DNA of 23,011 nucleotides from a virus. The position numbers and the translations under genes were made by a program. Positions 1,771 to 22,595 of this stretch are shown piece after piece; within the stretch, counting starts at the first letter, position 1, and the number at the start of each line of letters is the position of its first letter. The notes under the pieces are model-generated. The model saw only the letters and a program-made list of their open reading frames with translations. It was not told the DNA's origin and searched no databases. The stretch is from the UHGV virus genome UHGV-0356582; one strand, written 5' to 3'.

Positions 1771-2365
1771 GGTTTGGGTAGATATCGAAGGAATTCCATT
1801 TTATCAGGTTAGCAATAAAGGAAATTTCAGGTCTATTACGAGGGAAATTACAGTAACATCAACCAGACAGAGGCCATATAAGAAAATAATTAATGGCACT
1901 AGCGTAAAACCATTCAAGTGCAAGTCGACAGGATATCTTCAAATAAAGGTATACGGTAAGAAATACAGCGCCCACAGGATAGTTGCGAAAGCATTCTGTA
2001 CAGGGTTCTGTGATGGCTTGGTAGTTAATCACAAAAATGGGCAAAGAGATGACAATAGGGCTGAAAACCTTGAATGGGTATCACATTCTGAAAACTCAAA
2101 GCACGGATATAAACAAAATGGAAGAATACCTATATCGCTAGGTAAATTTAGTGGTGATCATCCTGCCAGTAAAGCTGTTATTTCTACTGACATGAAAACT
2201 GGGGAGGAGGTTTATTATGAAGCAGCTATGGATGCTGTCAGAGAAGGATTTGATAGTTCGTCAATTAGTCGTTGCTGTAATGGCGAAAGCTCATATCACA
2301 AAGGAAGATTCTGGCGATTTGCAAATGAAACAATGAAAGCGCGATGGGGAGACAGGGCGGCATGA
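1763..2365 (+). CDS. HNH homing endonuclease (NUMOD4-like N-terminus plus HNH_3-like motif)
   Basis: [17 protein letters not shown] (NUMOD4-like) and [28 protein letters not shown] (His/Asn HNH motif). AT-rich coding sequence. Start overlaps the ninB stop and stop overlaps the ninE start. Confidence 0.85.
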
Positions 2366-2544
2366 GACGACAGCGACGAAGTATCACCGACATCATCTGC
2401 GAAAACTGCAAATACCTTCCAACGAAACGCTCCAGAAATAAACGCAAGCCAATCCCGAAAGAATCTGACGTAAAAACCTTCAACTACACGGCTCACCTGT
2501 GGGATATCCGGTGGCTTAGAGAACGTGCGAGGAAAACAAGGTGA
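2362..2544 (+). CDS. ninE: NinE-family protein, 60 aa
   Basis: [52 protein letters not shown]... matches my recollection of lambda NinE. True start is the ATG at 2362 (ATGA overlap), not the ORF-track start at 2344. Confidence 0.8.
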
Positions 2545-2711
2545 TTGACCCAAATCGAAGTTACGAACAACAAAGCGTAGAGCGGGCTTTAACGTGCGCT
2601 AACTGCGGTCAGAAGCTGCATGTGCTGGAAGTTCACGTGTGTGAGCACTGCTGCGCAGAACTGATGAGCGATCCGAATAGCTCAATGTACGAGGAAGAAG
2701 ACGATGAGTGA
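2541..2711 (+). CDS. ninF: NinF-family small Cys-rich protein, 56 aa, GTG start
   Basis: Not in the ORF track (under 60 aa). Translation [57 protein letters not shown] matches my recollection of lambda/P22 NinF. GTGA overlap with the ninE stop. Confidence 0.7.
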
Positions 2712-2973
2712 TTTCTCTGAGCTTATTTCCTTCAGAAAAGACAGAGAAGAAATGCGGACTGAATCTGTCTATTACGTTCAACACCGGAATAAACGCTCGG
2801 TGCTTGATCAGGAGTTGGTTATTACCGGAGACCTGGCATTCAGAACATATAAGGCCAGCATGGAAATGAAGGATTTCCCTAAATGTGGTTCTGAAAGAGA
2901 AGCAGCGTTAAAGCTGGCAGAGTGGATGCAGAGAATGGCTGCTGCAATTGAGAATTACTGGAGCGAACCATAA
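2704..2973 (+). CDS. hypothetical nin-region protein, 89 aa
   Basis: ATG overlaps the ninF 3' end and its TAA overlaps the ninG ATG (TAATG). I do not recognise the sequence; it sits between ninF and ninG, which are adjacent in lambda as I recall it. Confidence 0.55.
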
Positions 2974-3584
2974 TGGCTAAACCAGCGCGAAGACGATGTA
3001 AAAACGATGAATGTCGGGAATGGTTTCACCCTGCATTCGCTAATCAGTGGTGGTGCTCTCCAGAGTGTGGAACCAAGATAGCACTCGAACGACGAAGCAA
3101 AGAACGCGAAAAAGCGGAAAAAGCAGCAGAGAAGAAACGACGACGAGAGGAGCAGAAACAGAAAGATAAAATTAAGATTCGAAAACTCGCTTTAAAGCCC
3201 CGCAGTTACTGGATTAAACAAGCCCAACAAGCCGTAAACGCCTTCATCAGAGAAAGAGACCGCGACTTACCATGTATCTCGTGCGGAACGCTCACGTCTG
3301 CTCAGTGGGATGCCGGACATTACCGGACAACTGCTGCGGCGCCTCAACTCCGATTTGATGAACGCAATATTCACAAGCAATGCGTGGTGTGCAACCAGCA
3401 CAAAAGCGGAAATCTCGTTCCGTATCGCGTCGAACTGATTAGCCGCATCGGGCAGGAAGCAGTAGACGAAATCGAATCAAACCATAACCGCCATCGCTGG
3501 ACTATCGAAGAGTGCAAGGCGATCAAGGCAGAGTACCAACAGAAACTCAAAGACCTGCGAAATAGCAGAAGTGAGGCCGCATGA
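2973..3584 (+). CDS. ninG: NinG/Rap recombination-associated structure-specific endonuclease
   Basis: [41 protein letters not shown]... near-identical to lambda NinG as I recall it. Two Cys clusters, lysine/glutamate-rich linker. Confidence 0.95.
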
Positions 3585-3787: not shown

Positions 3788-4436
3788 TGGCAGCAAATAC
3801 CGAAATATTTGGGTAGTTGGCGATCTGCACGGATGCTACACGAACCTGATGAAAAAACTGGAGACGATAGGATTCGACACCAAAAAAGACCTGCTTATCT
3901 CGGTGGGCGATTTGGTTGATCGCGGTACAGAGAACGTCGAATGCCTGGAATTAATCACATTCCCCTGGTTCAGAGCTGTACGTGGAAACCATGAGCAAAT
4001 GATGATTGATGGCTTATCAGAGCGCGGAAACGTCAATCACTGGATGCTTAATGGCGGTGGCTGGTTCTTTAATCTCGATTACGACAAAGAAATTCTGGCT
4101 AAAGCTCTTGCCCATAAAGCAGATGAACTTCCGTTAATCATCGAACTGGTGAGCAAAGATAAAAAATATGTCATCTGCCACGCCGATTATCCTTGTGACG
4201 AATACGAGTTTGGAAAGCCAGTTGATCATCAGCAGGTAATCTGGAACCGCGAACGAATCAGCAACTCACAAGACGGGATCGTAAAAGAAATCAAAGGAGC
4301 GGACACGTTCATCTTTGGTCATACGCCAGCAGTGAAACCACTCAAATTTGCCAACCAGATGTATATCGATACCGGCGCAGTGTTCTGCGGAAACCTCACA
4401 TTGATTCAGGTACAGGGAGAAGGCGCGTGGGCATAA
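3765..4436 (+). CDS. ninI: NinI serine/threonine protein phosphatase (lambda PPase family, calcineurin-like metallophosphatase)
   Basis: [24 protein letters not shown]...GDLVDRG...GNHE... metallophosphatase motifs, near-identical to lambda PPase. Start taken at ATG 3765 rather than the track's 3690, to match the known N-terminus. Confidence 0.9.
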
Positions 4437-4945
4437 GAGAACTAAACCTAACCAAAGAACAGCATGAGTGGCTGAATGGCTGGCTTGAACTGTGGGGCGC
4501 ATGGGTTTATTCAGGTCGTCTGGAAAAGCGCATGATCAGCGTAATAGCGAAGTTCATGGAGAGCGTAGAGCCGGGAAGAGTTATGACAAGGCCAATGTGT
4601 AATGATGATGATGGAATGTTGATTTCTCAGGTCGTCGATTCCGTCATGTACATTGACAAGAAAGCCTTTGGCATCCTCCTCAGCTACTACGCTCATGGTT
4701 CATCAAAGCGAGCAATTGCATCCTACTATCACGCGACTGCAAAGCCACGCAAGATGTGTGGACGTGGTGGCGAGGGATGGAGAAAACCTTCACTGGCAAC
4801 CTGTAGAAACGAAATTGACGACATCCTGAAATCGTCGTTATTTGTTTTGTACCAACCAATGCAAAATGCTTTCAAAATGCGTAAACGTGTTGAGAAAGTT
4901 AAGCATGTTGCTGTTAAAAGCCTTGACATGCAATTAGCCATTTAG
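4427..4945 (+). CDS. putative late-gene antiterminator Q (assigned mainly by position; not the lambda Q sequence type)
   Basis: GTG start with GGGAGAAGG RBS, overlapping the ninI stop. Lies between ninI and the lysis cassette where Q always sits. A candidate late promoter overlaps its 3' end. I cannot confirm the family by sequence recall. Confidence 0.5.
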
Positions 4946-4952
4946 CCATAAT
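4923..4952 (+). promoter_or_regulatory. candidate late promoter (PR'-like): -35 TTGACA, 18-nt spacer, -10 CATAAT
   Basis: TTGACA at 4923-4928 and CATAAT at 4947-4952. Located at the 3' end of the putative Q gene, as in phage 21/82-type late regulatory regions. Confidence 0.4.
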
Positions 4953-4962
4953 TAGAGGGTAA

Positions 4963-5004
4963 GCTGCCGTTAGTGACTCTTAAGTTGCAACGGTGGCTTT
5001 TTTT
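4963..5004 (+). terminator. candidate intrinsic terminator downstream of the late promoter (tR'-like)
   Basis: Imperfect 9-bp stem (4963-4971 pairing with 4989-4997, two G-U pairs) followed by T7 at 4998-5004. Confidence 0.4.
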
Positions 5005-5444
5005 GTTTGCACAACAGGTAAGAGCATTGAACCCGCAGACCTCGCGGAATTGGTGAAAGGTGCCGCGCAGTGCTCTTATCGTTGTGGTGAATGCACAGGC
5101 TGATGTGTAAGGGCAAGAATCTTTCGCTGGATTCGGTGTGGCCACGTAGCCCGCTGTAGGCAGTTGCAGCAAACCGGAGATCAGCACCGGTCGCCACAAT
5201 CCAAACTGAGCCGTAGCCACTGGCTATCCTGAATTCATCAGTGATAGTTACGCTGCGGCCTTCTACACATGACCTTCGTGAAAGCGGGTGGCAAGAGGCT
5301 GCGCTAACAACCTCATGCCGTTTTGCTCGTGCATATCGGTCACGAACAAATCTGATTACTAAACACAGTAGCCTGGATTTGTTCTATCAGTAATCGACCT
5401 TATTCCTAATTAAATAGAGCAAATCCCCTTATTGTGGGTAAGAC

Positions 5445-5768
5445 ATGAAGATGCCAGAAAAACATGACCTGTTAGCCGCCATTCTCGCGGCAAAGGAACA
5501 AGGCATCGGGGCAATCCTTGCGTTTGCAATGGCGTACCTTCGCGGCAGATATAATGGCGGTGCGTTTACAAAAACAGTAATCGACGCAACGATGTGCGCC
5601 ATTATCGCCTGGTTCATTCGTGACCTTCTCGACTTCGCCGGACTAAGTAGCAATCTCGCTTATATAACGAGCGTGTTTATCGGCTACATCGGTACTGACT
5701 CGATTGGTTCGCTTATCAAACGCTTCGCTGCTAAAAAAGCCGGAGTAGAAGATGGTGGAAATCAATAA
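5445..5768 (+). CDS. S: class I holin S (S107/S105 dual-start type)
   Basis: [41 protein letters not shown]... near-identical to lambda S, including the Met1-Lys2-Met3 dual-start motif. Confidence 0.95.
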
Positions 5769-6228
5769 TCAACGTAAGGCGTTCCTCGATATGCTGGCGT
5801 GGTCAGAGGGAACAGATAACGGACGTCAGAAAACCAGAAATCATGGTTATGACGTCATTGTAGGCGGAGAGCTATTCACTGATTACTCCGATCACCCTCG
5901 CAAACTTGTCACGCTAAACCCCAAACTCAAATCAACAGCAGCCGGACGTTACCAGCTTCTTTCACGTTGGTGGGATGCATACCGTAAGCAGCTTGGCCTG
6001 AAAGACTTCTCTCCGAAAAGCCAGGACGCTGTGGCATTGCAACAGATTAAAGAGCGTGGCGCTTTGCCGATGATTGATCGCGGTGATATCCGTCAGGCAA
6101 TCGACCGTTGCAGCAATATCTGGGCTTCGTTGCCCGGGGCTGGTTATGGCCAGTTCGAGCATAAGGCTGACAGCCTGATTACAAAATTCAAAGAAGCTGG
6201 CGGAACAGTCAGAGAGATTGAGGTATGA
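5752..6228 (+). CDS. R: endolysin R (lytic transglycosylase)
   Basis: [49 protein letters not shown]... matches lambda R, 158 aa. Start overlaps the S 3' end. Confidence 0.95.
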
Positions 6229-6662
6229 GCAGAGTAACCGCGATTATCTCCGCTCTGGTTATCTGCATCATCGTTTGCCTGTCATGGGCTGTTAATCACT
6301 ACCGTGATAACGCCATCGCCTACAAAGAGCAGCGCGATAAGGCCGCATCCACAATTGCTGACATGCAGAAGCGTCAACGTGATGTAGCAGAACTCGACGC
6401 CAGATACACAAAGGAGCTTGCTGATGCTAACGCGACTATCGAAAGCCTCCGTGCTGATGTTTCTGCTGGTCGTAAGCGCCTGCAAGTCGCCGCCACCTGT
6501 GCAAAGTCAACGACCGGAGCCAGCAGCATGGGCGATGGAGAAAGCCCAGGACTTACAGCAGATGCTGAACTCAATTATTACCGTCTCAGAAGTGGAATCG
6601 ACAGGATAACCGCGCAGGTTAACTACCTGCAGGAGTACATCAGGACGCAATGCCTGAAATAA
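6225..6662 (+). CDS. Rz: i-spanin Rz
   Basis: N-terminal transmembrane segment [31 protein letters not shown] matches lambda Rz; the C-terminal coiled-coil part is divergent. ATGA overlap with R. Confidence 0.9.
6418..6609 (+). CDS. Rz1: o-spanin Rz1 (lipoprotein), embedded in the +1 frame of Rz
   Basis: Signal peptide with lipobox LVVSAC followed by a proline-rich segment ([13 protein letters not shown]). Fully nested in Rz, as in lambda. Exact start (6418 or an internal Met) is uncertain. Confidence 0.75.
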
Positions 6663-6693
6663 TTTTTTTGCAAATCACAAAGTCCATTTAATG

Positions 6694-6719
6694 AGCCTCG
6701 CGATGCGGGGCTTTTTATT
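6694..6719 (+). terminator. intrinsic terminator after Rz
   Basis: 8-bp stem AGCCTCGC / GCGGGGCT (one G-U pair), 3-nt loop, then TTTTATT. Confidence 0.55.
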
Positions 6720-6740
6720 CCCAACTCTATAGGTAATTTT

Positions 6741-7268
6741 ATGACCCAGCATATTGGCGTAAAACTGATTAACGCCTTTCCGATGACGAGACAGGCATAT
6801 AACGATTTTCGTGGCTGGCAGCTTCCAGCCGGAGAAAACGGCGAGGACGAAGGCTATCTGGTTGAATATCTGGATGGCGGAAAACCTAACACCGATCGCT
6901 TTGATGGCTACGTTAGCTGGAGTCCAAAAGAAGTATTCGAAAAGGCTTATCGTCCGGTATCAGGGCTAAGTTTCGGCCTTGCCATTGAAGCGCTCAAGTT
7001 GGGGAATAAAGTTGCCCGTGCTGGCTGGAATGGTAAGGGTATGTGGCTGGCATACGTTAAACCGTACACTGAGGCTGTTCATACTGGCAGTACGCCTTGC
7101 TTTTGCAGTCGCGTCTTTGAGTTGCCTGAAGGTACGCATGGAGAACCGAAACGATCTCCGAAACAACTTCCGTATATCGCCATGAAAACAGCGGACGATA
7201 AATTAGTGCCGTGGCTGGCTAGTCAGACTGATGTTCTAGCAGAAGACTGGCAAATCATTACCATGTAG
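6741..7268 (+). CDS. hypothetical protein, 175 aa; C-terminal half resembles the DUF2829 (Tad2-like) small phage protein family
   Basis: Segments FGLAIEALKLGNKVARAGWNGKGMWLAY and PYIAMKTADDKLVPWLASQTDVLAEDWQII match the conserved pattern I associate with DUF2829. Gene is immediately downstream of a terminator. Family assignment is unverified. Confidence 0.5.
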   Translation: MTQHIGVKLINAFPMTRQAYNDFRGWQLPAGENGEDEGYLVEYLDGGKPNTDRFDGYVSWSPKEVFEKAYRPVSGLSFGLAIEALKLGNKVARAGWNGKGMWLAYVKPYTEAVHTGSTPCFCSRVFELPEGTHGEPKRSPKQLPYIAMKTADDKLVPWLASQTDVLAEDWQIITM

Positions 7269-7562
7269 GCATTACAAAGCCCATCTACGGGTGGGCTTGA
7301 TAATGAAACCGGAATTTATTCTAGGTAACCAGTTACGGCAGTACAGCGAAACAACCCAAGCCAGAAAGTGGGGAAATAACACTGGCAGCCACTGAAAGAT
7401 GAACCTCCAGCCTTATGGCAAAAAAGATTCTTTGTGGTGGCGGACTGATGGAAAGACATCGGTTATTGCAGAGACCATTCAATGAGTGGTCTCGACAATG
7501 GCTTATACCCTACACGGGATAACTTAACTGATATCCCTTTTAACGGATAAACGGAGCCAACA

Positions 7563-7805
7563 ATGGCAGAGATTATTCCCATGACTGAAGAACAGAAATT
7601 CCAGTTAGAGATTTACAAACTGGTCATGAACCAGAACGCAGCCGCAGAAGAAGCATTTCAGTTCATTGGCACTGACGAACTGAAGCTTGAGCTATTCAAA
7701 ATTCACTTCCAGTCAGGCGGCGCTAATTCAGATATCACGATCCGCACATTTGAAGCGGTGCGTAAATCGAAGGAAGCGTTAGACCTGTTCACTACCGGAG
7801 CATAA
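7563..7805 (+). CDS. hypothetical protein, 80 aa, upstream of the terminase genes
   Basis: GGAG at 7551-7554 before the ATG. Ends 2 nt before the small terminase start. No recognisable motif. Confidence 0.5.
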   Translation: MAEIIPMTEEQKFQLEIYKLVMNQNAAAEEAFQFIGTDELKLELFKIHFQSGGANSDITIRTFEAVRKSKEALDLFTTGA

Positions 7806-7807
7806 AC

Positions 7808-8248
7808 ATGGCGCGCCCAACAAAGTATCAAGAGGCGTACGCCGAACAGGCACGCAAACTGTGCTTGCTGGGCTACACCGATGCAGAGCTTGCTGATTTC
7901 TTCGAAGTCAGTGAGTCAACTATTAACAAGTGGAAGCTTGATTATCCTGAGTTTTCGGAGTCCATAAAAAAGGGTAAGGCCGTTGCTGATGCAGAAGTTA
8001 GTGACCGTCTTTATCAACGCGCTATGGGCTTCGTGGCTCCAGACATCGATATTCGTGTTATTGAAAACAGAATTGTCGAAACTCCGCTTGAGAAGTATTA
8101 CCCGCCTGATACAACCGCCGCCATCTTCTGGCTTAAGAACCGACAGAAGGATAAATGGCGCGACAAGGTTGATCACGAACTAACAGGCAAAGACGGCGGC
8201 GCAATTCAGATTGAAACATCACCGATGAGCACTCTATTCGGAAAATGA
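7808..8248 (+). CDS. terminase small subunit
   Basis: N-terminal HTH-like segment (YTDAELADFFEVSESTINKWK). Immediately precedes and overlaps (ATGA) the large terminase gene. Size and position fit Sf6-type TerS. Confidence 0.8.
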   Translation: MARPTKYQEAYAEQARKLCLLGYTDAELADFFEVSESTINKWKLDYPEFSESIKKGKAVADAEVSDRLYQRAMGFVAPDIDIRVIENRIVETPLEKYYPPDTTAAIFWLKNRQKDKWRDKVDHELTGKDGGAIQIETSPMSTLFGK

Positions 8249-9660
8249 CCTCGATTAATCCTATCTTTGAACCGTTCATTGAGGCGCATCGCTACAAAGT
8301 CGCCAAAGGCGGTCGAGGTAGCGGCAAATCATGGGCAATTGCGAGGCTGCTTGTTGAAGCGGCGCGTCGGCAGCCTGTGCGCATACTTTGCGCTCGTGAG
8401 CTGCAAAACAGTATCAGCGATTCGGTAATTCGGTTGCTTGAAGACACCATAGAGCGGGAAGGGTATTCGGCTGAGTTTGAAATTCAGCGTTCCATGATTC
8501 GTCATCTCGGAACGAATGCTGAATTCATGTTCTACGGCATCAAAAACAACCCGACGAAGATTAAATCGCTCGAAGGCATTGATATCTGCTGGGTGGAAGA
8601 AGCGGAAGCGGTAACGAAGGAATCGTGGGATATCCTGATTCCAACCATCCGTAAGCCGTTCTCTGAAATATGGGTAAGTTTCAACCCGAAAAACATCCTC
8701 GACGATACCTATCAGCGATTCGTCGTAAATCCTCCCGATGATATTTGCCTGCTGACGGTGAACTACACCGACAACCCGCATTTTCCTGAAGTCCTCCGTC
8801 TGGAGATGGAAGAGTGTAAACGCAGAAATCCGACACTGTATCGTCACATCTGGCTTGGTGAGCCAGTAAGCGCAAGTGATATGGCAATCATCAAACGTGA
8901 ATGGCTTGAAGCCGCAACCGATGCGCACAAGAAACTCGGATGGAAAGCGAAGGGCGCGGTTGTCTCTGCGCATGACCCATCAGATACAGGGCCAGATGCT
9001 AAAGGTTACGCATCGCGTCACGGTTCGGTAGTTAAGCGCATTGCCGAAGGTCTGCTGATGGACATCAACGAGGGTGCTGACTGGGCTACTTCGCTGGCGA
9101 TTGAAGACGGCGCTGACCATTACCTGTGGGATGGTGATGGCGTCGGTGCGGGGCTACGCAGACAGACAACGGAAGCGTTCTCCGGCAAGAAAATCACCGC
9201 CACGATGTTCAAGGGCAGTGAATCGCCATTCGATGAAGATGCACCATATCAGGCCGGAGCATGGGCTGATGAAGTCGTGCAGGGCGACAACGTTCGCACT
9301 ATTGGTGATGTGTTCCGCAATAAGCGAGCGCAATTCTATTACGCGCTGGCTGACAGGCTGTATCTGACATATCGGGCGGTTGTTTACGGTGAGTATGCAG
9401 ACCCCGACGACATGCTGAGTTTCGACAAAGAAGCGATAGGCGAGAAGATGCTGGAGAAGCTGTTTGCAGAACTGACGCAGATTCAGCGCAAATTCAATAA
9501 TAACGGGAAGCTGGAGCTTATGACTAAGGTCGAAATGAAGCAGAAGCTCGGTATTCCATCTCCTAACCTGGCTGATGCGCTGATGATGTGTATGCATTGC
9601 CCGGAGTCGGCTGCGCAACCCGACTATTCCAGTTACTCAATTCCTTGTGGTGTAGGTTGA
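8245..9660 (+). CDS. terminase large subunit (ATPase/nuclease)
   Basis: Walker A KGGRGSGKS and Walker B-like ICWVEEAE. 471 aa, consistent with P22/Sf6-group large terminases. Confidence 0.9.
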   Translation: MTSINPIFEPFIEAHRYKVAKGGRGSGKSWAIARLLVEAARRQPVRILCARELQNSISDSVIRLLEDTIEREGYSAEFEIQRSMIRHLGTNAEFMFYGIKNNPTKIKSLEGIDICWVEEAEAVTKESWDILIPTIRKPFSEIWVSFNPKNILDDTYQRFVVNPPDDICLLTVNYTDNPHFPEVLRLEMEECKRRNPTLYRHIWLGEPVSASDMAIIKREWLEAATDAHKKLGWKAKGAVVSAHDPSDTGPDAKGYASRHGSVVKRIAEGLLMDINEGADWATSLAIEDGADHYLWDGDGVGAGLRRQTTEAFSGKKITATMFKGSESPFDEDAPYQAGAWADEVVQGDNVRTIGDVFRNKRAQFYYALADRLYLTYRAVVYGEYADPDDMLSFDKEAIGEKMLEKLFAELTQIQRKFNNNGKLELMTKVEMKQKLGIPSPNLADALMMCMHCPESAAQPDYSSYSIPCGVG

Positions 9661-9661
9661 T

Positions 9662-11860
9662 ATGGCAGAAAAAAAGATGACTGACTGGCATCGCAAGGTG
9701 CTGTGCAACTTTGATAATGCCTGGTCAGCAACTCAGGATATGCGTGAGCAGATTATTGAGGCTCAACGTTTCGTCCGGGTGTCCGGCGCACAGTGGGAAG
9801 GCAGCACAAACGCTGGTTACTCATTTGATGAAGGCAGGTTTGAGCATTACCCGCGCTTTGAACTGAATAAGATTGCCCGTGAATGTGATCGCATCATTGG
9901 CGAGTATCGACAGAATCGCATCAGCGTTAAATTCAGGCCGAAGGATGACAAGGCATCGGAAGCGTTAGCCGAAAAAATGAACGGCAAATTCCGCGCTGAC
10001 TATCAGGAAACATCCGGTGGCGAAGCGTGTGATAACGCATTTGATGATGCCGTAACGGGCGGATTCGGTTGTTTCCGCATGTGTGCCGATTATGAAGATG
10101 AAATGGATCCGAGTAACGAGCAACGCCGTATAAGCCTTCTCCCTGTTTACGACCCAGCGACATGCGTCTTCTTTGATCAGGACAGCAAGCAATATGACCG
10201 CTCTGATGCTATGTGGGCTATGGAAATGTTCTCCATGACGCCTAAAGCGTTCGAGGCTGAATACCCTGATTCCACCGCGGCAAGCCTTTCTCGTGATGGC
10301 ACTGGCACTCAATATGACTGGTCAACGCCCGATGCCATCTATGTTGGACGCTACTACGAAGTTCGCATAGAGAAGGTGAAGCTCACGGCGTGGCGCAACC
10401 CTGTTAGCGGAGAAACGGCAATCTATGATGAAGAGCAAATCAAAGATATTGTTGACGAGCTGACCGATGGCGCATTCGAACTGATTGGCGAGCGGACAGT
10501 AAAGAAACGCCGCGTTTATTGTGGACTTCTGTCTGGCGCTGAATGGCTGGAAGAACCGAAGCGCATTCCGGGCGAACATATTCCTCTCATCCCGGTATAT
10601 GGGCGTCGTTCATTTGTTGATAATCAGGAGCGAATCGAAGGTCACGCAGCAAAAGCGATGGATGCACAGCGTCTTGAGAACCTGATGGTTTCCATGATTG
10701 CAGATAACGCTACTCAGGCTGGCGGTGATGGCATTCCTGTAGTTGATGTTGACATGATTCCTGGTCCTCTCGCCACTCATTGGGCGGAGCGCAACAAAAA
10801 GCGCCCGGCGTTCCTGCCGATGGTCAGTCTGAAAAACAAAAACGGAGATATTACTGCGCAGGCTCAGGTCAGCAGTTATACGCCTCCGACACAAATGCCT
10901 CCAGCTCTTGCCGGGCTATTGCAGTACACCGGAACGGCTATTCAGCAAATTACAGGTGCGTCGCAGCTTGAGAACATGCCGAGCAACGTCGCTACCGATA
11001 CCGTTGATAGCATCTTTAACCGGATGGACACGCAGTCCTATATCTACATGGACAACATGGCTAAATCCATGCGCCGTGCTGGCGTCGTGTGGCTTTCTAT
11101 GGCTCGTGAAGTCTATGGCAGTGATACGCCGATGCGTATCGTTAATGAGGACGGCAGCGATGACGTGGCGCTGATGACTGGTGAAGTGGTTGACCGTCAG
11201 ACAGGGCAGGTTATCGCGCTTAATGACCTTTCGCAGGGTAACTATGAAGTGACTGTCGATGTCGGTCAGTCGTTCGCTACTCGCCGTGACGCAACGGTTA
11301 AGTCGTTACTTTCCATGCTGGCACTTATCCCACCAGGAACGCCGAAGCACGACCTTGTATCGTCGATGATTCTCGACAATATGGACGGCGAAGGGATGGA
11401 CGACCTTAAAGAATACAACCGCAATCAGTTGCTTCTGTCTGGAGTTATCAAGCCGAGAACACCAGAAGAACAGCAGATGGTTGAGCAGGCGAAACAACAA
11501 CAGGCCAGTCAGCCAGATCCGGCTATGGTTGCAGCGCAAGGTCAGCTTCTTGCAGGTCAGGCTGAATTGCAGAAAGCGCAGAACGAGCAGGCTGCAATCC
11601 AGGTTAAAGCCTTCCAGGCACAGACTGATGCTCAGGTTGCAGCGGCAAATGTTGTGAAAATACTCGCATCTGCCGATAGTCAGCAGAAATCTGATATCCG
11701 CGAGGCTCTGAAACTGCTCGGACAGTTCCAGCAACAGCAAGGAGATAATGCCCGTGCTGATGCAGAGCTTGTCCTGAAAAGTCAGGCACAGGGCCATGCG
11801 CAGCGCATGGACATCAGCAGCATCCTGCAAAAATCAACTCAGCAACAACCACAGCAGTAA
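9662..11860 (+). CDS. portal protein (P22 gp1-like, with C-terminal Gln/Ala-rich barrel region)
   Basis: 732 aa. Segments such as GEHIPLIPVYG and RTPEEQQMVEQAKQQQASQPDPAMVAAQGQLLAGQAELQKAQNEQ resemble P22 portal as I recall it. Confidence 0.9.
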   Translation: MAEKKMTDWHRKVLCNFDNAWSATQDMREQIIEAQRFVRVSGAQWEGSTNAGYSFDEGRFEHYPRFELNKIARECDRIIGEYRQNRISVKFRPKDDKASEALAEKMNGKFRADYQETSGGEACDNAFDDAVTGGFGCFRMCADYEDEMDPSNEQRRISLLPVYDPATCVFFDQDSKQYDRSDAMWAMEMFSMTPKAFEAEYPDSTAASLSRDGTGTQYDWSTPDAIYVGRYYEVRIEKVKLTAWRNPVSGETAIYDEEQIKDIVDELTDGAFELIGERTVKKRRVYCGLLSGAEWLEEPKRIPGEHIPLIPVYGRRSFVDNQERIEGHAAKAMDAQRLENLMVSMIADNATQAGGDGIPVVDVDMIPGPLATHWAERNKKRPAFLPMVSLKNKNGDITAQAQVSSYTPPTQMPPALAGLLQYTGTAIQQITGASQLENMPSNVATDTVDSIFNRMDTQSYIYMDNMAKSMRRAGVVWLSMAREVYGSDTPMRIVNEDGSDDVALMTGEVVDRQTGQVIALNDLSQGNYEVTVDVGQSFATRRDATVKSLLSMLALIPPGTPKHDLVSSMILDNMDGEGMDDLKEYNRNQLLLSGVIKPRTPEEQQMVEQAKQQQASQPDPAMVAAQGQLLAGQAELQKAQNEQAAIQVKAFQAQTDAQVAAANVVKILASADSQQKSDIREALKLLGQFQQQQGDNARADAELVLKSQAQGHAQRMDISSILQKSTQQQPQQ

Positions 11861-21699: not shown

Positions 21700-22188
21700 T
21701 TATCTGATGTTACTGCTACTGTTGCATGTTACCGTGTTTCCAAATCCTGAATTGCAGTTTGTATATGTGTCAACGCGTGTTGGGTAAGGTTGAGTTATAA
21801 CAGGCTGGCGCGCTTTTTGCTCGATAGCTTGCATTGTGTTTACAGCCTGATAATTCAATAAAGCCTGCTGGAATGCTTGGCTTTGTGCTATTTGTTGGGC
21901 TTGTTCTTGGCTTTGTAATTGAACATAAAGATTCTGAAGCTCAAGTCTTGCCTGTGCGTCACTTATCTTGCCTTCATCAACACCTTGCCCGAGCATCTTT
22001 GCAGCAAGGACATACAGCTTAGGTGTTGGTGCAGATGCCATGCGTGAGTCGTTCTTCACACTGGCATCAAGGCAATTAGCCATATCGCTAAGCTTTTGAT
22101 AGCGTTGTTCGCAACTTGCTTGATAGTCACTTACTTTTGCGCATCCAACCAGCAGAAGCGGGATAATTAACAGTGATTTTTTCATATG
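21700..22188 (-). CDS. predicted lipoprotein, about 162 aa, Gln-rich middle and Cys-containing C-terminus
   Basis: Start ATG at 22186-22188 on the minus strand, preceded by AGGAGAG. Signal peptide MKKSLLIIPLLLVGC with a lipobox. AT-rich. Opposite strand to the structural operon, at the P22 sieA/immI position. Confidence 0.7.
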   Translation of the reverse strand, partial: HMKKSLLIIPLLLVGCAKVSDYQASCEQRYQKLSDMANCLDASVKNDSRMASAPTPKLYVLAAKMLGQGVDEGKISDAQARLELQNLYVQLQSQEQAQQIAQSQAFQQALLNYQAVNTMQAIEQKARQPVITQPYPTRVDTYTNCNSGFGNTVTCNSSSNIR

Positions 22189-22255
22189 GTTAACTCTCCT
22201 TAGTTTTTCACAGGATATCATGAAGGCAATGCCATTTTAGCCGGAAACTAGATTT

Positions 22256-22522
22256 CTATGTTTCCTTTTTATTATTGCTATACATGGTCTTAAGCGTTTC
22301 AAAAACCATTTTCTTAACCATATCGGATTGTTGTTCTGCCATACGCTCTGCATCGTCAATGTAAACTGATGCAGAGCTTTGTTTATCCAATGATTCCTCA
22401 ATCGCTGCAATTATCTCTGAGTTCAGCGATCTGTTATTCATCTTCGCACGCTGTTTAATTTTCGCGTGGAGTTCATGCGGAAGTCTCAAGTGAAACTGCG
22501 CCTCGTCGTATTTGCTGTACAT
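22256..22522 (-). CDS. mnt: Mnt-like ribbon-helix-helix repressor (Arc/MetJ superfamily)
   Basis: FHLRLPHELHAKIKQRAKMNNRSLNSEII... and ...DDAERMAEQQSDMVKKMVFETLK... parallel P22 Mnt (NFRMPMEVREKLKFRAEANGRSMNSELL... / ...NDAERLADEQSELVKKMVFDTLK...). Start taken at the internal ATG (22522); the upstream in-frame ATG at 22555 lacks an RBS. Confidence 0.8.
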   Translation of the reverse strand: MYSKYDEAQFHLRLPHELHAKIKQRAKMNNRSLNSEIIAAIEESLDKQSSASVYIDDAERMAEQQSDMVKKMVFETLKTMYSNNKKET

Positions 22523-22595
22523 CCTTGATGCCTCACCAGGTGGGTGGAATGGCATCGTAACTTACTGGATAAATACTCAATAGTACCATTTCGGT

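Follow-up and report, generated by a model that had tools for sequence, protein, structure and literature searches.

The interval examined here, positions 6663-7807 of a 23,011-nucleotide stretch of viral DNA (UHGV virus genome UHGV-0356582; the whole stretch is called the window below), lies between the lysis gene Rz and the small terminase gene of a temperate phage, and the window itself is the right arm of a Lederbergvirus (P22/Sf6/CUS-3-like). All genes and structured elements of the interval are on the plus strand. Just 3' of the Rz stop codon (6662), a terminator scan detects an intrinsic-terminator-like hairpin at 6693-6713 with a T-run to 6720; its nine pairs (six of them G-C) close a loop of 3 and are followed by TTTTTATT, and the hairpin is also present in the predicted fold. 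Downstream of it, positions 6741-7268 encode a two-domain protein of 175 residues that Pfam, PDB and Foldseek comparisons predict to be an immune-signal sponge, and that we refer to as the cargo protein. Its N-terminal domain comprises residues 1-73 (6741-6959) and its Tad2-like (DUF2829) domain residues 76-173 (6966-7259; Pfam PF11195 at residues 77-173). The remainder of the interval is occupied by a conserved, strongly structured spacer (7265-7562) and by a DUF2560 gene of 80 codons (7563-7805; PF10834, E 2.6e-42), and a homology break inside the spacer marks a second insertion point (7460-7462), which is empty in this phage.

A preliminary description of this DNA, made from its letters alone, had already listed the terminator and the DUF2829-like gene, and both are confirmed. 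It had also listed about 290 bp of non-coding DNA and an unknown 80-residue open reading frame (ORF). The former indeed amounts to 294 bp (7269-7562) without a credible gene, but this DNA is not featureless, being conserved in 209 phage records; the latter is present, but it belongs to a known family, DUF2560 (HK620 hkbM, P22 orf80, Sf6 gp67). We consider it likely that the interval is a hypervariable accessory-gene slot at the lysis/packaging border of lambdoid phages, established and recurrently exchanged, and that it currently holds a sponge gene as its cargo. The left anchor of this slot is the 3' end of Rz with the terminator hairpin, and its right anchor is the structured spacer with the DUF2560 gene.

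Homology breaks and slot contents

Breakpoints were located by pairwise BLAST against a set of 13 sequences, namely lambda, P22, HK620, Sf6, CUS-3, Kapi1, Huey, phiKp_30, ST64T, L, mEp234, Dewey and the prophage of E. coli M172-1. Homology breaks occur at about 6433/6473, 6655, 6674-6716, 7265/7328, 7461, 7521/7549, 7803 and 8160/8186. Similarity to lambda stops within Rz, at 6433-6473 (nucleotide homology reaches 6473), and the DNA beyond is P22/Sf6-like. The Rz protein is only 58% identical to lambda Rz as against 89% to P22 gp15, and homology to P22 spans 6259-6716. Since lambda similarity ends inside Rz, the interval is not the meeting point of a lambda-type and a P22-type module that the preliminary description took it to be; that junction is inside Rz, outside the interval.

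Past this junction, homology to CUS-3, Sf6 and Huey breaks off at 6655, and that to P22, phiKp_30, mEp234 and Dewey, which have the terminator hairpin in common with this phage, continues across the terminator to 6716. Homology restarts at 6674 for Kapi1 and Huey and at 6694 for M172-1. On the right side, ST64T, L, mEp234, Dewey and HK620 rejoin at 7265, that is, with the final four bases of the cargo gene, stop codon included, and CUS-3, Sf6 and P22 rejoin at 7328-7335, CUS-3 being 97-98% identical from 7328 rightward. Sf6, Huey and phiKp_30 carry an insertion at 7461, consisting of an Acb4-family gene (Sf6 gp66), and P22 has a further insertion at 7521/7549. The type of small terminase switches within 7803-8186.

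What these breaks enclose differs widely among relatives. In a census of 80 IMG/VR loci with an identical DUF2560 protein, slot 1 (from Rz to 7328) contained Rha in 27 loci, KilA-N in 15, a T5orf172/GIY-YIG-like gene in nine and a Tad2-like gene in four, and it was empty in about ten. Slot 2 (at 7461) ranged in size from 2 to 1331 bp across the 80 loci; it was empty in most of them and otherwise held a PF13876 (Acb4) gene (13 loci), DUF551 (five), a trypsin-like peptidase (one) or further genes, as judged by Pfam. Given both the clustering of homology breaks and the diversity of slot content, the preliminary suggestion that exchange and accessory cargo are concentrated here holds up well. The same gene as in this phage sits in the same slot in IME10 (84.5%), Huey (81%), Louie and HZ41, and Klebsiella phage ST512-KPC3phi13.3 carries a homolog at 88.6% identity. 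In ST64T and L the slot is empty, with the spacer beginning about 30 bp past Rz; since these two phages have no gene there, the cargo gene is an insertion between genes, which would be one trait of a moron. Mosaicism extends to the Tad2-like gene, whose first 300 nt are 93-99% identical in the four census loci while its middle diverges. It appears that homologous recombination within the anchors would swap whole cassettes between phages.

The slots also showed some less usual content. In one census locus (L079, IMG/VR contig 3300045988_069239), slot 2 holds a gene for a trypsin-like peptidase of 246 residues together with small ORFs (2597-3337), downstream of the Tad2-like gene of that locus, an unusual cargo for the slot. 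Moreover, a hydrophobic ORF of 47-52 residues, of the Sf6 gene 65 type, overlaps the end of Rz in 41 of the 80 census loci as well as in Sf6, Huey, Kapi1 and M172-1. It is absent from this phage (6655-6694), in which the P22-type terminator directly follows Rz.

The two-domain cargo protein

Assignment of the cargo protein to the Tad2-like family is supported by sequence and by structure prediction. PF11195 (DUF2829, now named Tad2-like) matches with 89.6 bits against a cut-off of 25 (E 2e-25), thus passing the family threshold, and a phmmer search of the PDB retrieves Tad2 chains, aligned over residues 74-173, at E values from 1e-13 to 2.5e-16, including SPO1 gp34.65, the Tad2 of a Myroides odoratus prophage (ModTad2), HgmTad2 (deposited as AcrIIA7) and SptTad2. 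An AlphaFold2 monomer model of the cargo protein (mean predicted local distance difference test score, pLDDT, 79.9) matches 24 Tad2 chains in Foldseek at a probability of 1.0, with target-normalised TM-scores of 0.59-0.83. The ligand pocket for glyco-cyclic ADP-ribose (gcADPR) is formed in SPO1 Tad2 by W25, N26, W73 and D79 (10.1101/2023.05.01.538930) and in HgmTad2 by W21, N22, G23, W87, L88, S90, T92 and D93, and the combined HgmTad2 substitutions W21A/N22A and S90A/T92A/D93A markedly reduce gcADPR binding (10.1101/2023.11.15.567273). In the cargo protein, W96/N97/G98 and W158/L159/S161/T163/D164 align to HgmTad2 W21/N22/G23 and W87/L88/S90/T92/D93, and across 36 aligned family members six of these residues (W96, N97, G98, W158, S161 and D164) never vary. 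An insertion in the Tad2 domain, at about residues 104-147, is hypervariable and corresponds to the cyclic-dinucleotide-binding insertion of HgmTad2.

Because of this homology and the conserved pocket residues, we infer a sponge mechanism. The Tad2 domain would form an oligomer that binds the ADP-ribose-derived signals of TIR-domain defence (Thoeris); with the signal sequestered, the NADase effector would stay off and the phage would escape abortive infection. To judge from its sequence, the cargo protein most likely sequesters such an ADP-ribose-derived TIR signal. It is a new member of a known family rather than a new family, and its ortholog in Kapi1 has already been flagged as Tad2-like in the literature. 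Indeed, RNA sequencing (RNA-seq) of cultures of a Kapi1 lysogen found this ortholog, Kapi1_043, to be the top-expressed phage gene and proposed that it is Tad2-like, and the capsid and scaffold transcripts were likewise high (PMC12922286). It is possible that spontaneous induction contributes to the strong Kapi1_043 signal, whose source may be either a promoter of its own or a late transcript that is stable and has a hairpin on each side. In this phage, two such hairpins flank the cargo gene (6693-6713 and 7270-7305), the downstream one without a T-run. The cargo gene lies in the late operon, and Q-modified polymerase would be expected to read through the terminator that precedes it.

Several points weigh against the proposal of an exchanged slot with a sponge as its cargo. 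The cyclic-dinucleotide residues of HgmTad2 (S47, F70 and N85) are not conserved in the aligned cargo protein. Tad2 homologs with the WLASQTD motif also vary in what they inhibit, as Tad2_70 (97 residues) inhibits Pycsar and Tad2_71 (90 residues), with the same motif, inhibits Thoeris types I, II and IV (10.1101/2025.08.24.671296); since these homologs differ in specificity, the exact ligand is not readable from sequence. The long form, with an N-terminal domain in front of Tad2, is absent among the tested homologs that we found, and we located no binding or infection assay of it or of the cargo protein; the 18 Tad2 homologs tested in the same study appear to lack the N-terminal domain, judging from the absence of its motif from the supplement (10.1101/2025.08.24.671296). 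Expression from a late operon would be unusual for a sponge that is needed early, and a promoter scan of 6500-7900 found no sigma-70 consensus on the plus strand by which it might be expressed in a lysogen. Finally, the proposed recombination in the anchors is deduced from homology patterns.

The N-terminal domain lies outside the part of the cargo protein that matches Tad2. In the AlphaFold2 model it is small and beta-rich, its pLDDT exceeding 90, and it has more invariant positions than expected of a linker (G6, K8, A12, Y20, W26, P29, V41, E42, Y43, D45, G46, Y57, S61, P62, F66 and Y70). Searches of the Pfam, NCBIfam, PDB-sequence and PDB-structure (Foldseek) libraries at hand returned no match for it. 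HMMER, run over all 1.84 billion representatives, detected it in 1587 clusters at 50% identity, where it occurs alone (72-110 residues), N-terminally or internally. Among the best 150 of these 1587 clusters, its fusion partners are Tad2 (53), PF21825 (Sequestin; 38) and PF13876 (Acb4; 20), triple fusions included, and in all it is fused to five independently validated sponge families, namely Tad2, Sequestin, Acb4, Lockin and RyR-Tad. PF13876 (N4 Gp49/Sf6 gene 66) is the Acb4 family of sponges against CBASS (10.1101/2024.12.30.630793), and PF21825 is Sequestin, a sponge for 3' cyclic ADP-ribose (3'cADPR) that came to light because it is fused to Tad2 and Acb4 (10.1101/2025.07.12.664507). The SWSP motif of the N-terminal domain appears at least 148 times in the Sequestin table of the latter study and twice in its Lockin table, and the domain is never mentioned in its text (10.1101/2025.07.12.664507). 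The domain is also present in crAss-like phages and in gp49 of coliphage N4. TadIV-1 and Lockin were considered as identities of the domain, and neither is supported.

What this domain does can be approached through RyR Tad gp68, to whose N-terminal domain it is homologous (E 9e-6, 30% identity). In its crystal structure, the N-terminal domain of RyR Tad is a domain-swapped dimer with a fold that has no assigned function, is often encoded by a separate ORF and on its own has no anti-Thoeris-I activity (10.64898/2026.06.04.730250). On the conservative reading of these sequence relationships, the N-terminal domain is probably a shared module that helps many sponges to dimerise or assists them in some other way. 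A bolder scenario, which we put forward tentatively and hold to be the less probable one, is that it would be a widespread and so far unnamed anti-defence module that acts in its own right and is not a passive extension. Perhaps it binds a further immune signal, or perhaps unrelated sponges require it in vivo for oligomerisation, stability or delivery. The logic parallels that of Sequestin, which was found because it is fused to known sponges. If the domain does have its own function, it would follow that P22-like phages have a sponge hotspot between their lysis and packaging genes, slot 1 being given to Tad2-like genes and slot 2 to Acb4. The domain is the one open lead from this locus and a cheap, concrete experimental target.

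The spacer, the DUF2560 gene and rival readings

The spacer downstream of the cargo gene contains hairpins at 7270-7305, 7443-7464, 7465-7499 (with a core of 10 bp at 7471-7493) and 7516-7537. Of the 209 phage records with the spacer, 197 have it at 90% identity or more. As befits a linker sequence, it follows unrelated cassettes in P22-like as well as HK97-like phages, and in the HK97-like siphoviruses mEp234, HK140 and HK446 it precedes the HNH/packaging genes. We regard it not as junk but as a conserved anchor for the exchange of cassettes and modules, and it may in addition be an RNA element. Its small ORFs (34, 28, 35 and 22 residues) were rejected as genes, having no third-position bias at variable sites, and an indel in an A-run shifts the frame of spacer ORFs in three of 43 sequences; two minus-strand ORFs (7316-7459 and 7333-7482) have no PHROG match.

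The neighbouring DUF2560 gene is clearly under purifying selection, since its variable sites are mostly third codon positions (30 of 36). The family is narrow, with 90 clusters whose named matches are all from Enterobacterales (Escherichia, Salmonella, Shimwellia and Serratia). Its model is a four-helix bundle (pLDDT 78) for which we found no PDB match by sequence or fold and no NCBIfam match, and a literature search gave no relevant result. Its constant place directly upstream of the small terminase gene suggests that it may have a packaging-related or otherwise late role.

A rival reading puts the spacer, and not the cassettes, at the functional centre of the interval. On this view the spacer would be an RNA element through which the late transcript is processed, stabilised or attenuated, so setting how strongly the lysis genes are expressed relative to the head genes, and the cassettes would be incidental. 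The plus strand of the spacer folds well beyond its shuffles (minimum free energy -98.5 kcal/mol against -70.9 +/- 4.8; z = -5.8, with none of 100 shuffles as stable), more so than the minus strand (z = -3.2). Its core also changes more slowly than adjacent synonymous sites, variable-site density in the sampled loci being 0.147 as compared with 0.37 at third codon positions of DUF2560 (Fisher p = 2e-4), its position before the packaging module is kept in P22-like and HK97-like phages, and in the hairpin at 7471-7493 six of seven variable pairs still pair, including one series of A-U, G-U and G-C. However, covariation is not above the control level, as 246 of 500 shuffles score at least as high, in a test of low power given sequences that are at least 93% identical, and an Rfam search of 4900-8000 at E<=1 returned only a chance snoRNA match. 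Insertion of Acb4 and other cassettes at 7461 interrupts a predicted stem and does no apparent harm; the beginning (5' end) of orf118 in ST64T and L is homologous to 7415-7514, a part of the spacer that may be a gene remnant; and recent recombinational spread could equally account for the low divergence. We regard a spacer-centred explanation as rather unlikely, though not negligible, and favour the slot with exchangeable cargo.

Two further alternatives concern the origin of the arrangement and the activity of the cargo. The preliminary description saw a recent, lineage-specific joint, in which an early/lysis arm of lambda type had been joined to a packaging arm of P22/Sf6 type, with cargo trapped in between. 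Several proteins of the left arm are indeed nearly identical to those of lambda (NinG 99%, NinH 100%, NinI 97%, S 99% and R 98%), while the head and tail genes, as had been noted, match CUS-3, Sf6, HK620 and P22; yet the likeness to lambda claimed for the nin and lysis proteins as a whole does not extend to NinB (50%), to Rz or to Q, which has no lambda match. A recent joint would also fit the fact that no record reproduces the whole 23-kb mosaic: the top phage matches to the window are vB_EcoP-720R6, with a maximal coverage of 67%, phiKp_30, CUS-3, phiv205-1 and Kapi1, and the top E. coli prophage matches cover at most 82% of it, at 96% identity. Furthermore, a P22-type terminator directly followed by a Tad2-like gene is found in only one IMG/VR locus, L079, and a 31-mer over the terminator/gene joint has no exact match in 185,579 GTDB representative genomes. 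However, not only does lambda homology end before the interval, but the combination of lambda-type S and R with P22-type packaging genes is common to HK620, Sf6, CUS-3, Huey and Kapi1, and the same flanks surround many different cassettes. The preliminary description had named a known phage with a colinear arrangement as the sign of an established lineage, and such phages largely exist: Kapi1 is colinear over 6674-7803 at 96% nucleotide identity, and the M172-1 prophage over 6694-9864 at 97%, with 97% of 6200-8300 covered at the same identity. These two already largely refute a recent joint, which we now consider improbable. Because Kapi1 and M172-1 carry the same arrangement and the phages IME10, Huey, Louie and HZ41 the same gene in this place, the slot is established and not a one-off joint. 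As for activity, the DUF2829 gene could be read as an anti-CRISPR gene of the AcrIIA7 type, since the homologs in Huey and Louie bear the annotation 'anti-CRISPR protein' and the cargo protein matches PDB entries 8kbi ('Inhibitor of Type II CRISPR-Cas system', E 8.5e-15) and 9kzr ('AcrIIA7'). The label in Huey and Louie stems from AcrIIA7. E. coli carries CRISPR systems of types I-E and I-F and is not known to carry type II-A, which argues against such a function. Moreover, Li et al. failed to reproduce Cas9 inhibition by HgmTad2/AcrIIA7 or its homologs and found sponge activity instead (10.1101/2023.11.15.567273), and Yirmiya et al. came to the same conclusion. An anti-CRISPR role is thus the least credible of the explanations considered, and we retain that of a sponge.

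Flanking modules and related systems

The window begins with a fragment of a replication-loader gene and continues with the nin region, Q (4427-4945), S, R and Rz up to the interval; after it come the genes for TerS, TerL, portal, scaffold, coat, gp4, gp10, an Sf6-type needle, gp14 and the ejection proteins, and at the right end a minus-strand Mnt-like gene and the start of the tailspike gene. The left context of the slot, all on the plus strand, consists of the lambda-type holin gene S (5445-5768; Pfam Phage_holin_3_1, E 2.4e-30), the lambda-type endolysin gene R (5752-6228) and the i-spanin gene Rz (6225-6662; Pfam Phage_lysis, E 1.8e-35), in which Rz1 is embedded in the +1 frame at about 6424-6609, as indicated by the CUS-3 annotation and an ORF at 6418-6609. 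Its right context, on the same strand, is formed by TerS (7808-8248; PHROG 309 terminase small subunit, E 2e-68) and TerL (8245-9660; Pfam Terminase_3, E 3e-41).

Some features of these flanks are worth recording in their own right. The Q protein (window region 4427-5440) has 172 residues with Phage_antitermQ and DUF1133 matches, and the 3' end of its gene matches CUS-3 together with the downstream flank. The window has no tRNA genes between Q and S, where Sf6 and Kapi1 have them. In the nin region, a gene for a homing-endonuclease-like HNH/NUMOD4 protein of 200 residues (1763-2365) lies between ninB and the ninE/ninF-like genes, a position at which lambda, P22 and HK620 lack it. Between the last ejection-protein gene and the tailspike gene, the minus strand of 21700-22555 encodes an Arc/Mnt-like repressor of 99 residues and a 173-residue ORF without a Pfam match, resembling an immI remnant.

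The mosaic joint as such is not new, as accessory genes between Rz and terminase are already annotated in P22, HK620, Sf6 and CUS-3. What makes the slot worth attention is that, in common temperate phages of E. coli, Shigella and Salmonella, it repeatedly holds sponges (Tad2-like and Acb4), so that it is a place in which to hunt for anti-defence genes. Only two parts go beyond routine annotation: the N-terminal domain, uncharacterised and associated with sponges, and the spacer with its predicted structure, which precedes the packaging module of P22-like and HK97-like phages alike.

Among known systems, the corresponding regions of P22 (rha, orf25, orf80), HK620 (hkbK-hkbM) and Sf6 (genes 65-67) have the same position, the same anchors and variable content, but they carry Rha, KilA-N or Acb4-family genes and not a Tad2-like gene. 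The Sf6 and CUS-3 records annotate 'boundary sequences', of which bsq7 falls within Rz and not in the spacer. The closest relative is Kapi1 (vB_EcoP_Kapi1, MT813197), whose Kapi1_043 is the ortholog of the cargo gene, in the same slot and with the same spacer and DUF2560 gene; the N-terminal domains of the two proteins are 100% identical. Kapi1 differs in having another Rz 3' end, a small extra ORF between Rz and the Tad2-like gene and, after DUF2560, an hkbN-like ORF and an HK620-type small terminase.

At the protein level, the solved Tad2 sponges (SPO1 gp34.65, 8SME-G; HgmTad2/AcrIIA7, 8KBI-M; Myroides odoratus, 9EIB; SptTad2, 8WJD) share with the cargo protein the DUF2829 fold and a pocket made of a W-N-G loop and a W-L-x-S-x-T-D motif. 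However, they are single-domain proteins of 88-104 residues, whereas the cargo protein adds the 73-residue N-terminal domain and has its own 44-residue insertion with a CxC pair. RyR Tad (gp68 of Pectobacterium phage vB_PatP_CB1) shares the N-terminal domain, with the motif EGYLV.Y...Y.SWSP..VF, but its C-terminal ligand domain is helical and like Repeat12 of the ryanodine receptor, not Tad2. The architecture of an N-terminal domain followed by Tad2 recurs in coliphage N4 'gp49' (160 residues, EF056009), whose N-terminal domain is 54% identical. The neighbour of this gene, N4 'gp48', is an Acb4-family gene, and the same pair fills slots 1 and 2 of Huey, although in N4, a lytic podovirus, it occupies a replication-region hotspot by the virion RNA polymerase gene, while here the setting is the late operon of a temperate lambdoid phage. 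The adjacency of a Tad2-type and an Acb4 gene in Huey (positions 1885-3000 of locus L005) and in the unrelated lytic N4 (positions 1109-1962 of locus L095) suggests that the two sponges are transferred, or favoured by selection, as a pair.

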